Shown piece by piece: positions 10,141 to 13,697 of a stretch of DNA of 64,000 nt. Under the pieces are notes generated by a model, which ran no database searches, was not told where the DNA came from, and worked only from the letters and a program-made list of their open reading frames with translations. The position numbers and the translations under genes are program-made. How positions within the stretch are numbered: the stretch's first letter is position 1; each line of letters opens with the position of its first letter. Origin of the DNA: Escherichia coli (GTDB lineage Bacteria > Pseudomonadota > Gammaproteobacteria > Enterobacterales > Enterobacteriaceae); NCBI RefSeq assembly GCF_030013205.1, contig NZ_CP122648.1. One strand, written 5' to 3'.

Positions 10141-11813
10141 TTGCTTTGTATCATCGTAAAAATGTCTTTCAGACATGTGTCATTTATTTTGTCACTAACA
10201 AGTCAAAAATATCACGGGTTATTTATGAAAGTATTTCACAATATATTTAAGCACTTCTCTTCAAACCATCAAGATAAGCATTCAGATAAAGTTAACAGTC
10301 ATCAACACCATGGCAATGTTGATAAAAAACATCGTTCAAAGATAGTTGAAATTGATAAGCTGGATAAACATTCGCAAATAGATAACGATTTTGGCCTGCA
10401 TATCATCTATTTCCTGCAACATGGCTGCTGGAACGTAACTGAACATAGTCCTCAGATAGAAAAACTGTGGTTTTACAATAGTGAGCCATCTATAGATATT
10501 AAAGAATATAATGGTTTCGCCGATAATACTACTGACACGTTTATCTTTACAATTATACCAGACAATAACCATGTGATAAAATTATCGTCTCCCATTACCG
10601 TTACGATTGAGCGTAAGGACGGTTATTATTTTATTAATTTCTCCGGGGATAAATCAGACATAATTTATAAAGTTGATGGGTTTTCTATCATACCTGAAAA
10701 TTTTTTTACTCTTCTTAGCGGTAATTTTAAAGCTGACTGGCGTTGGGCTGTCTCTAAAGAGACGTTTACTAAGGAAAAGTTTGATAGCTATGTTGAATCT
10801 GTTTTTTCAAAAATAGACTTTTATAAACAGTGTGGTGTGATTAACCCAAAAAATCCCAACACGGCTTATTTTGGCGATACAGATGGAAGAGTGGGCGCTG
10901 TACTTTATGCATTGCTCGTTTCAGGGCATATAGGCATCAGGGGAGAGGGGGGAGTTTATTATGTCAATTATTAAAACACGAAGACATGGCGTCATTCGCA
11001 TATGAAAATAAAAAATTGAAAAAACTCTTCACTTTATTAGATACGAGAGACATGATCTTGAATGAGTTGCATCAACATGTTTTTTTAAAAGGCGATGCGA
11101 TTACCCCTTGTATCTTCCTTGGGGATCATACAGGCGATAGATTTAGTACTATTTTTGGTGATAAATATATCCTTACTTTGCTAAATTCTATGCGAAATAT
11201 GGAGGGTAATAAAGATAGTCGTATAAATAAAAATGTTGTCGTTCTGGCTGGAAATCATGAAATCAATTTTAATGGTAACTATAGTGCACGACTAGCAAAT
11301 CATAAACTCTCTTCCGGTGATACATATGACTTAATTAAAACGCTCGATGTTTGTAATTATGACTCAGAAACGAAAGTTTTAACCAGTCATCACGGAATAA
11401 TAAGAAATGAAGAAAATGAATGTTATTGTCTAGGTGCTTTGCAGGTTCCATTTAATCAGATGAAAGACCCAATTGATCCTGAGGAATTAGCAAATATATT
11501 TAATAAAAAACATAAACAACACATGGATGATCGTCTTATCCATCTAATTAGAAGCAATGCTATAGCATCCACACCTGTATATGACAATTATTTTAATAAC
11601 ACTACTGCTTTCAGACCAAAACCTGAAGATATCTTCAAATGTGGACAGACGCTCAAAAAAAGTAAACAGAAATATGGCCATTATGGATTAGGGGTAGATC
11701 AGCATCAAAAAATTGATAATTATACCATGGGGCTAAATTCCTGGAAGATAGCACCTAACGAACGTGGTGATAAAAAAGGTGTCCCAGGGCTTAGTTGTTT
11801 TCAATCTCATTAA
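10141..11813 (+). pseudogene. yhiL: yhiL, DUF4049-family paralog of yhiJ, split by a frameshift into two ORFs (10141..10974 and 10986..11813)
   Basis: The two adjacent ORFs are in different frames and together align to the C-terminal two thirds of the 540-aa yhiJ product (AYFGDTDGRVGAVLYAL; CIFLGDHTGDRFS...VVLAGNHEINFNGNY); AT-rich; likely native start is ATG 10225. Confidence 0.75.
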
Positions 11814-12074
11814 AACTCCATGAATACGGTGGTATATCTTTTTAATCCTGCCAGTATTTCATAGTTTTTCTTAATCGATTGTAGAGGCATGTTCTGATGA
11901 CGCCTCTACAATCTTTAGGGACTTTCTCTACTATGAGATAAGAAATTTCATATTATGCTTTAAGGCTGAATGATTTGTGCAAAATATAATTATTTTTCCA
12001 TCGAACATGAGGTGTTTGTCATAAGATTAAATGATAACTATGTATTCCTCGCGGTGAATTGTATGAGGTAAAAG

Positions 12075-13697
12075 ATGAAAATTGGAACTGTGGCAGGTAC
12101 TAACGACAGTATAACGACTATCGCAACAAATGATATGGTGCAAGAGCATGTTACTAACTTCACTAAAGAACTGTTTGGGTATATTGCAAATGGTATAGGT
12201 GATGATATATCAAGTATTGCCAGGACAATGCTCGGTGAAGTTGTGGAAAAAATTGATGATTGGCAAATAGAACGTTTCCAACAATCTTTTCAAGATGACA
12301 AAATTTCATTTACCATAGAAACGAATCATTCAGAAAAATATAGTATGCTATCGGGCATGCGTGCCCATATTCTACGTAGGAATAATAGTTATCAGTTTAT
12401 TGTGACAATTAATAGTAAAAATTACGGTTGCCCTCTTGATGATACCGATATTAATTGGTGCAGCATTGTTTATTTACTTAATAATATGACAGTAAATGAT
12501 AATGCTAATGATGTTGCAGTTACTGAGTCGTACAAACCCATCTGGGACTGGAAAATATCGCAATATAATGTATCTGATATTAAATTCGAAACAATTATAA
12601 AACCCCAGTTCGCTGACAGAATCTATTTCTCCAATTGTTCACCCGTTGATCCCACAAGTACCAGACCAACCTATTTTGGTGATACCGATGGCTCAGTCGG
12701 TGCAGTTTTGTACGCGCTTTTCGCAACGGGACATTTGGGAATTATGGTTGAAGGAGAAAATTTCCTTAGCCAGTTGCTTAATATAGAAGATGAAGTTCTC
12801 AACGTATTGCTAAGGGAAAACTTTAATGAGCAACTTGACACTAATGTTAATACAATAATCAGTATTCTGAACAGAAGAGATATAGTTTTAGAAAGTCTTC
12901 AGCCTTATTTAGTTATTAATAAAGACGCTGTGACGCCATGTACGTTTCTTGGCGACCAAACCGGCGATCGATTTAGTAATATCTGTGGCGATCAATTTAT
13001 CATCGATTTGTTAAAACGTATAATGAGTATCAATGAAAACGTTCATGTATTAGCTGGAAATCATGAAACGAATTGCAATGGTAACTATATGCAGAACTTC
13101 ACGCGTATGAAACCACTTGATGAGGATACCTACGCTGGGATAAAAGATTATCCTGTATGTTTCTATGACCCTAAATACAAAATAATGGCAAATCATCATG
13201 GGATAACTTTTGATGATCAGCGAAAACGTTACATTATAGGACCGATAACAGTCTCTATTGATGAAATGACCAATGCTCTCGATCCGGTCGAATTAGCGGC
13301 AATTATTAATAAAAAGCATCATACTATAATTAATGGTAAAAAGTTTAAAACTAGCCGGGCTATCTCTTGTCGATCCTTTAATCGTTATTTTTCTGTTTCG
13401 ACAGATTACAGACCGAAACTTGAAGCACTATTAGCATGCTCACAAATGTTAGGTATAAATCAAGTTGTTGCACATAACGGTAATGGTGGAAGAGAACGCA
13501 TAGGTGAAACGGGGACAGTTTTAGGTCTTAACGCCCGTGACAGTAAACATGCTGGAAGAATGTTCAGCATGCATAATTGCCAAATTAACCCTGGTGCAGG
13601 GCCTGAGATAACCACTCCCTGGAAGTCTTACCAGCATGAAAAAAACAGAAATGGACTTATGCCTTTGATTAGAAGGCGCACAATGTTACAGCTCTGA
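12075..13697 (+). CDS. yhiJ: DUF4049-family protein with phosphoprotein-phosphatase-like motifs
   Basis: 540-aa ORF in an AT-rich segment; matches YhiJ as recalled; contains FLGDQTGDRF and LAGNHE blocks. Confidence 0.85.
   Translation: MKIGTVAGTNDSITTIATNDMVQEHVTNFTKELFGYIANGIGDDISSIARTMLGEVVEKIDDWQIERFQQSFQDDKISFTIETNHSEKYSMLSGMRAHILRRNNSYQFIVTINSKNYGCPLDDTDINWCSIVYLLNNMTVNDNANDVAVTESYKPIWDWKISQYNVSDIKFETIIKPQFADRIYFSNCSPVDPTSTRPTYFGDTDGSVGAVLYALFATGHLGIMVEGENFLSQLLNIEDEVLNVLLRENFNEQLDTNVNTIISILNRRDIVLESLQPYLVINKDAVTPCTFLGDQTGDRFSNICGDQFIIDLLKRIMSINENVHVLAGNHETNCNGNYMQNFTRMKPLDEDTYAGIKDYPVCFYDPKYKIMANHHGITFDDQRKRYIIGPITVSIDEMTNALDPVELAAIINKKHHTIINGKKFKTSRAISCRSFNRYFSVSTDYRPKLEALLACSQMLGINQVVAHNGNGGRERIGETGTVLGLNARDSKHAGRMFSMHNCQINPGAGPEITTPWKSYQHEKNRNGLMPLIRRRTMLQL

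Follow-up and report, generated by a model that had tools for sequence, protein, structure and literature searches.

The DUF4049 domain of Escherichia coli YhiJ and YhiL is predicted to adopt a divergent calcineurin-like metallophosphoesterase fold resembling that of the Legionella effector phosphatases WipA and WipB

We analyzed a 64,000-nucleotide stretch of Escherichia coli DNA (the window; contig NZ_CP122648.1 of RefSeq assembly GCF_030013205.1) that carries two neighbouring paralogs, yhiL and yhiJ, whose products share the DUF4049 domain (PF13258). Both genes lie, according to the RefSeq annotation and the list of open reading frames (ORFs), within positions 10141-13697, as stated in a preliminary description of this DNA, which had proposed that the two proteins have a divergent fold of the phosphoprotein phosphatase (PPP) type. 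Structure comparison, set beforehand as the test that could refute this proposal, upheld it. As judged from predicted structures, the DUF4049 domain of YhiJ and YhiL very probably adopts a divergent calcineurin-like (PPP-type) metallophosphoesterase fold, and among solved structures it comes closest, in these comparisons, to WipA and WipB, two effector phosphatases of Legionella. The proposal as a whole, which joins this fold and its Wip-like neighbours to a two-metal mechanism and to a phosphoprotein as the likeliest substrate, is one that we favour with moderate confidence.

The intact yhiJ coding sequence (12075-13697, plus strand; found in both the ORF list and RefSeq) specifies a protein of 540 amino acids, with an N-terminal domain of about 190 residues followed by DUF4049. 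The hidden Markov model (HMM) of DUF4049 covers residues 194-503 (E 1.7e-177; 12654-13583, plus strand), the region for which the PPP-like, Wip-like fold is predicted, and five motif blocks succeed one another within it, all on the plus strand. Block I, GDTDG (residues 202-206; 12678-12692), is equivalent to the GDxHG of PPPs with Asp205 replacing the metal-1 histidine, and both its glycines and both its aspartates are invariant. Block II, FLGDQTGDRF (residues 291-300; 12945-12974), has the form GDxxxDR with G293, D294, D298 and R299 invariant, and block III, AGNHETNCNGNY (residues 327-338; 13053-13088), contains GNHE with G328 and H330 invariant. Block IV, NHHG (residues 373-376; 13191-13202), with the invariant H374, aligns with the 'SHAPI' of WipA, while block V, AHNG (residues 466-469; 13470-13481), with the invariant H467, is the counterpart of the 'GH' block and takes the form (A/G)H(N/Y/H/D)G across the family. 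The preliminary description had correctly seen blocks II and III in YhiJ, and the GD-T-D-G and MANHHG segments to which it drew attention (the latter as a likeness of motif IV) turn out to be blocks I and IV; block V was overlooked. D203 and D294 are 91 residues apart, and VLAGNHE begins 34 residues past FLGD. In a six-frame translation of the window, the pattern GD.{2,3}DR.{20,45}GNH[DE] is matched by yhiL and yhiJ only, and it arose in 3 of 200,000 shuffles of YhiJ, a frequency of about 1e-5. The motif set of YhiJ is thus real and not a product of chance.

The family in which these blocks are conserved is tiny. An exhaustive HMMER search of 1.84 billion representative proteins gave 54 DUF4049 hits, mostly Escherichia fragments. 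The full-length relatives of YhiJ are the E. albertii YhiJ (57% identity), proteins of the YhiL type (about 31-37%) and, as distant members, three singletons from metagenomes or metagenome-assembled genomes, P0130 (720 amino acids), P0167 (563) and P0171 (477). Searches by tblastn from P0171 led to proteins of conjugative Pandoraea plasmids, flanked by insertion sequences and annotated 'metallophosphoesterase' (E 2e-12 to 7e-12). Among members that are only 18-25% identical, the invariant columns are G202, D203, D205 and G206, G293, D294, D298 and R299, G328 and H330, H374, and H467; position 329 is asparagine in all members but one, which has aspartate. Earlier word-indexed homolog searches were dominated by near-identical E. 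coli YhiL entries, and the same type of search started from the three distant members recovered nothing but the first of these query sequences. As to the setting of the distant relatives, P0171 is the sole cargo gene next to a Rep3-type replication gene on a 3.5-kb, small-plasmid-like contig of 31% guanine-cytosine (GC) content (L003 1-3524), the Pandoraea paralogs (L009 5386-7266; L010 5572-7572) occur at up to four places per plasmid, and P0167 has a Gly/Ala-rich hydrophobic stretch resembling the N-terminal segment of the Pandoraea proteins.

Sequence profiles link this family to the metallophosphoesterases, each of them weakly. With the YhiJ sequence alone as query, the PDB gave no match even at an E-value of 10; only profiles gave matches. 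YhiJ itself matches Pfam Metallophos (PF00149) at E 0.017, Pfam WipA_Phos (PF21663) at E 0.031 and NCBIfam T4SS_Wip (NF043030) at E 0.0033, in the last case with 16.6 bits against a cut-off of 300. Metallophos is found at E 0.1 or better in six of the seven diverse members, with a best value of 3.8e-5 in a Pandoraea relative, and P0167 matches the metallophosphoesterase PdeM at E 3.3e-5. One Pandoraea protein matches both Metallophos (6.4e-4) and DUF4049 (0.0058) and therefore bridges the two families. When the profile of the domain alone was compared with all PDB sequences, 14 of 14 matches were metallophosphoesterases, headed by Mre11 (E 2.4e-4) and continuing with WipA, ApaH, MPPED2, RLPH2, the nuclease MPE and BSU1. 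A profile search had been suggested as a check of the original proposal; in the form in which it was run, every weak match fell in the metallophosphoesterase superfamily. The sequence links are individually weak, yet all of them lie within this one superfamily.

Predicted structures point the same way. We obtained AlphaFold2 models of full-length YhiJ (from 15 sequences) and of the domain alone (from 7 sequences). In the full-length model, ten-residue blocks over residues ~195-470 mostly have a predicted local distance difference test score (pLDDT) of 75-94 and the N-terminal 190 residues are poor; the domain-only model has a mean pLDDT of 84, a predicted template modelling score of 0.85 and an unchanged topology. 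In the models, a strand precedes each block: residues 199-201 lead into GDTDG, 289-292 into GDQTGDR, 323-326 into GNHE and 370-373 into NHHG, and AHNG stands at the end of strand 462-467. Block I is followed in both models by helix 208-217. A motif block directly after a β-strand is the canonical arrangement of the metallophosphoesterase fold, and that is how the models place all five. In Foldseek comparisons with the PDB, WipB, WipA and ApaH were matched at E 7e-5 to 8e-4 with a probability of 1.0, the next match following only at an E-value of 0.46. ApaH and Pnkp are both among the structural neighbours, and the two closest structures are protein phosphatases. In AFDB50, the entries that come after the Escherichia and Shigella DUF4049 proteins are Pandoraea proteins with a 'calcineurin-like phosphoesterase domain' (3e-11 to 1e-8), followed by Legionella Dot/Icm substrates, WipB and WipA-like proteins of Berkiella. 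Measured against the calcineurin-like superfamily, YhiJ has the five ordered blocks, invariant and at the ends of strands, with DxD instead of DxH in block I, and the predicted structure shows the α/β β-sandwich that characterizes the superfamily.

Several points weigh against this assignment and should be set beside it. The structural evidence consists of models that draw on shallow alignments of 15 and 7 sequences, and every profile link is under the family threshold (16.6 vs. 300 bits for NF043030; E 0.02-0.03 for YhiJ against Pfam). The top matches by sequence alone are nucleases (Mre11, 2.4e-4; PdeM, 3.3e-5, for P0167) rather than protein phosphatases. A direct hhalign comparison with a small profile of lambda phosphatase, PphB and ApaH aligned 51 columns, in blocks II-III only, at a weak E of 0.034. 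Block I has aspartate where all characterized PPP and Wip enzymes have histidine, and the corresponding WipA mutant, H32A, is inactive (PMC5454105). With regard to the Wip proteins in particular, to our knowledge E. coli has no Dot/Icm system, and the analogy is silent on a cellular role of YhiJ for that reason.

Transfer of the established mechanism of PP1, lambda phosphatase and WipB to the YhiJ blocks suggests how such an enzyme might work. The five loops at the C-terminal ends of the β-strands would form a two-metal centre. Metal 1 would be bound by Asp203 and Asp205 of GDTDG and by Asp294 of GDQTGDR, which would bridge to metal 2, and the latter would be held by Asn329 (GNHE), His374 (NHHG) and His467 (AHNG). 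A metal-bound water would attack the phosphate ester, Arg299 would bind the phosphate, and the leaving group would be protonated by His330 acting as general acid, paired with Asp298. The all-carboxylate metal-1 site, which may be the signature of the family, would be expected to prefer hard ions (Mn2+, Fe3+ or Mg2+, for example). Specificity for a substrate or a partner would probably be conferred by a hairpin of about 55 residues inserted between blocks I and II and by the unrelated N-terminal domain.

What such an enzyme might act on can be approached by analogy, and here our proposal is more tentative. The leading reading is that the likeliest class of substrate would be a phosphoprotein (phosphotyrosine, phosphoserine or phosphothreonine), as for WipA, WipB, Shewanella PPI and RLPH2, because the nearest structures are protein phosphatases and because block II contains an Asp-Arg pair of the kind that PPP-type monoesterases typically have. 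The PPI structure is deposited as a protein-tyrosine phosphatase, and RLPH2 is specific for phosphotyrosine. Even so, we would put a protein substrate for YhiJ at slightly under an even chance. The main competitor is a domain with the same fold that acts on nucleotides or nucleic-acid ends, like ApaH (an Np4N hydrolase), Pnkp (end-healing) or PdeM/Mre11 (phosphodiesterases), possibly in the response to DNA damage. The Mre11 match of the family profile, the match of P0167 to PdeM, a ligase-associated DNA-damage-response endonuclease, and the presence of ApaH and Pnkp among the structural neighbours are all consistent with it, as is the appearance of yhiJ and yhiL in lists of LexA-dependent SOS genes (PMC11002266). 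The Asp-Arg pair of block II, however, is characteristic of PPP-type phosphomonoesterases and is absent from Mre11, and the two closest structures argue for a protein phosphatase. The SOS induction is moreover weak and late: after ciprofloxacin, yhiJ and yhiL rose late, with log2 fold changes of about 1 and 1.8, respectively (PMC11002266). Nor does the LexA-like box upstream of yhiL help, since it has one mismatch and occurs at the frequency expected by chance. We regard action on nucleotides or nucleic acids as a serious, though rather unlikely, alternative, and the phosphoprotein reading as the one to start from. The box in question, CTGTTGTTTTTTACAA (10038-10053), precedes the yhiL start by about 170 bp and differs at one position from CTGT-N8-ACAG; in a scan of the window, one-mismatch matches to this consensus were no commoner than chance.

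A second question is whether the predicted phosphatase fold still supports catalysis. The domain had been suspected of being catalytically degenerate, and in its strongest form this would make it a dead pseudo-phosphatase, with the fold retained as a binding scaffold. The histidine of motif I, essential in WipA, is indeed aspartate in every member; yhiL is often broken, as a pseudogene here and as many fragments in the databases; and ~21% of complete E. coli genomes are without yhiJ. Against this, D203, D294, D298, R299, N329, H330, H374 and H467 are conserved among members with 18-25% identity, and a role as scaffold only would be unexpected because the other catalytic positions are invariant at such a distance. 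The ratio of nonsynonymous to synonymous substitution rates (dN/dS), calculated between the allele of the window and a 96%-identical allele, is 0.20 overall, 0.38 for the N-terminal part and 0.12 for the phosphatase domain, which speaks for purifying selection on the latter. As for the aspartate, all members, those from Pandoraea among them, have this Asp205 at the second ligand position of block I, which is a histidine in PPPs and Wip proteins. It looks like the signature of a clade rather than decay, since aspartate can itself ligate a metal. Degeneracy is therefore not supported: the catalytic positions are occupied and, save for this conservative exchange, invariant. An active enzyme seems likelier than a pseudo-enzyme because the catalytic set is complete apart from the His-to-Asp change and because dN/dS in the domain is so low; we think it likely that YhiJ is an active hydrolase, and quite improbable that it is a dead scaffold.

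The only published functional claim is of another kind: Orth and Palsson (2012) put YhiJ forward as a myo-inositol:oxygen oxidoreductase on the basis of a list of BLASTp candidates and of the failure of a Keio yhiJ knockout to grow on myo-inositol, on which the wild type reached an optical density at 600 nm of 0.017 (PMC3423039). This growth signal is tiny, and the knockouts of all four unrelated candidates fell under the wild type. The only Pfam matches of YhiJ are DUF4049 and weak ones to metallophosphoesterase families, and both its predicted fold and its structural neighbours are those of phosphoesterases. Myo-inositol oxygenase is an HD-domain di-iron enzyme; YhiJ has no such Pfam match, and we disfavour this identity as very improbable. 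Least probable of all is a coincidental likeness in an AT-rich, low-complexity orphan gene, to which the modest profile E-values of YhiJ (0.003-0.03) might lend some colour; within the limits of predicted structures it is refuted by the chance expectation of the pattern (~1e-5), by the coincidence of the motif residues with the invariant columns of the family and by a structure-based ranking that independently yields the same superfamily.

How much of this is new should be stated with care. In the searchable literature we found no paper on DUF4049 and nothing that ties yhiJ to a phosphatase or metallophosphoesterase, so that in this respect the preliminary description was right to call the likeness undescribed. 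In the databases, the labels metallophosphoesterase or phosphohydrolase have already been given to the Pandoraea relatives and to one fragment from E. coli. PF13258 may already sit in the calcineurin clan CL0163, and InterPro or Gene3D may already assign the fold, in which case the relation would be known at the level of databases. The fold, the chemistry and the type of family are well known, and anyone who searched the PDB with the public AlphaFold model for UniProt P37626 would arrive at this conclusion too. We are thus dealing with no new kind of enzyme and no new principle, and with a useful annotation in which the likeness to Wip architecture and the GDxDG metal site stand out as curiosities. 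Its value lies in the fact that yhiJ and yhiL are counted in the 'y-ome' of E. coli K-12, the genes without an accepted function: the PPP-like assignment makes a function testable and offers predictions at the level of single residues (D203, D205, D294, R299, H330, H374 and H467). The invariant His-to-Asp exchange in block I also offers a naturally occurring variant of an active site that has been studied in great detail. Finally, with a link to Legionella effectors and a place in an AT-rich island that E. albertii and most E. coli possess, these genes invite one to ask whether they have been left over from an activity aimed at hosts or at other bacteria.

The paralog yhiL (10225-11813, plus strand) encodes DUF6860 followed by DUF4049 and is a pseudogene in this strain, labelled by RefSeq as 'DUF4049 domain-containing protein, frameshifted'. 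Alignment to an intact allele encoding 535 amino acids (L005 1132-2739) places a 1-bp deletion near position 10950, because of which the gene is read as two ORFs, 10141-10974 and 10986-11813. In the intact 529-amino-acid form of YhiL, Pfam DUF6860 precedes a DUF4049 match of E 4.2e-155. The upstream fragment contains GDTDG alone (block I; residues 245-249 of the fragment; 10873-10887, plus strand), and the downstream fragment contains only FLGDHTGDRF and AGNHEINFNGNY (blocks II and III; 11115-11282, plus strand, in the downstream frame) as well as SHHG. The statement that both halves of yhiL share blocks II and III was therefore mistaken: only the downstream fragment has both, and what looked like two sets of motifs is one set split across a frameshift. 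Numerous YhiL and YhiJ entries in databases are fragments, which suggests that the decay of yhiL is recurrent. A YhiL-like protein of 541 amino acids (P0010), the single member of its cluster, has internal duplications: GDTDG segments occur twice and a stretch of the C-terminal part is repeated. These may be an artefact of assembly or recombination. In YhiJ, the region before DUF4049 (residues 1-190; 12075-12650) has no Pfam match and a pLDDT of ~25-60; it is not detectably DUF6860, and the homology between the paralogs starts at about residue 127.

Both genes lie in an AT-rich island (~10000-13900; not assigned to a strand) between yhiM and yhiY/yhiI. The GC content is 0.32-0.38 across ~10000-13500 against 0.55-0.59 in the flanks, which bears out the AT-rich character first ascribed to the segment. 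In E. coli the order of genes is yhiN-yhiM-yhiL-yhiJ-yhiY-yhiI-rbbA, yhiL and yhiJ being adjacent and both on the plus strand, and porcine enterotoxigenic E. coli chromosomes match the region at 100% identity. yhiJ was found in 4281 of 5426 complete E. coli genomes, nearly all copies being 95-99% identical, and E. albertii also has the gene. For the Escherichia genes, the defence-system models of PADLOC gave no relevant match and tblastn gave none in phages. Among plasmids, tblastn with YhiJ matched only three records of 4.8-4.9 Mb, evidently chromosomes, and thus gave no true plasmid link; the PLSDB records concerned (NZ_CP134663.1, NZ_OL790696.1 and NZ_CP141089.1) carry the yhiL-yhiJ locus and appear to be E. 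coli chromosomes misfiled as plasmids. An Rfam scan of positions 8000-15000 of the window matched nothing, and scans for promoters and terminators gave signals that were not above those of shuffled sequence.

Comparison with characterized phosphatases shows where the predicted domain of YhiJ stands. The Wip proteins are represented by PDB entries 5n6x, 5y9o and 5nny, Pfam PF21663 (WipA_Phos) and NCBIfam NF043030 (T4SS_Wip). Like these proteins, YhiJ has a seven-residue GDxxxDR block II (GDQTGDR in YhiJ; GDEVADR in WipA, from the alignment with YhiJ; GDELVDR in WipB) and is fused to an unrelated extra domain, which in YhiJ is N-terminal. Its long distance from block I to block II (91 residues) resembles that of WipB, where 86 residues separate Asp32 (block I, Asp32/His34) from Asp118 (block II) (PMC5572681). 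In WipA, a helical hairpin is inserted between the short strands β1' and β2', after His32 of the block I DxH and before the Mn-binding Asp180 (PMC5454105). Both YhiJ models have an insertion at the same site, a helical hairpin (residues 225-278; 12747-12908, plus strand) made of helices 225-245 and 255-278, with short strands on either side (221-223 and 279-282). This hairpin explains the distance from block I to block II, given initially as about 95 residues and rightly called non-canonical. Both the long distance and the additional residue of block II are thus common to YhiJ and the Wip proteins. The differences are equally clear. YhiJ is just 12-15% identical to Wip proteins and scores far under the cut-offs of their HMMs (16.6 vs. 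300 bits; E 0.031), its block I is GDxDG rather than GDLHA, with Asp for His, its block III has the GNHE of eukaryotic PPPs in place of WipB's NHG, and the helices of its hairpin are shorter (~21 + 24 vs. 54 + 53 residues in WipA).

With the classical PPPs (PP1, PP2A, calcineurin, PP5, lambda phosphatase, E. coli PrpA/PrpB and ApaH) and the bacterial-like PPPs (Shewanella PPI and RLPH2), YhiJ shares the GD..DR, GNHE and later histidine blocks, their order and the Asp-Arg pair of block II. It departs from them in the Asp for His of block I, in a block II that is one residue longer and has no trailing glycine, in ~60 extra residues between blocks I and II, and in a profile-profile similarity confined to blocks II-III (hhalign E 0.034). 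The Pandoraea proteins (WP_047909438.1 and WP_052654374.1) have in common with YhiJ the signature GDxDG / GDxxxDR / GNH[DE] / H / GH / LNAR and are its next-best neighbours in AFDB. They differ in their length (626-666 amino acids), in an N-terminal hydrophobic, membrane-like segment and in being borne on conjugative plasmids between insertion sequences; their DUF4049 match is weak (E 0.0058) and they already match Pfam Metallophos. One may speculate, as a possibility that we consider doubtful, that YhiJ/YhiL and the Pandoraea proteins form a distinct 'GDxDG' clade of Wip-like PPPs with an all-carboxylate metal 1, acquired horizontally by Escherichia, whose members would be protein phosphatases, perhaps directed at tyrosine like WipA, RLPH2 and PPI, that act on bacterial phosphoproteins late in the SOS response or are secreted onto host proteins. 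With such a clade, if real, Wip-type phosphatases would for the first time be known from bacteria lacking Dot/Icm. Of the strict PPP signature (GDxHG - GDxVDRG - GNHE at a spacing of 25-30 residues), only GNHE is canonical in YhiJ, and the Wip families, whose GDxxxDR block and long helical insertion it has, do not include it by HMM score. Globally, by its motifs and predicted fold, the YhiJ domain is a member of the calcineurin-like superfamily that is neither a strict PPP nor a member of the Wip HMM family.

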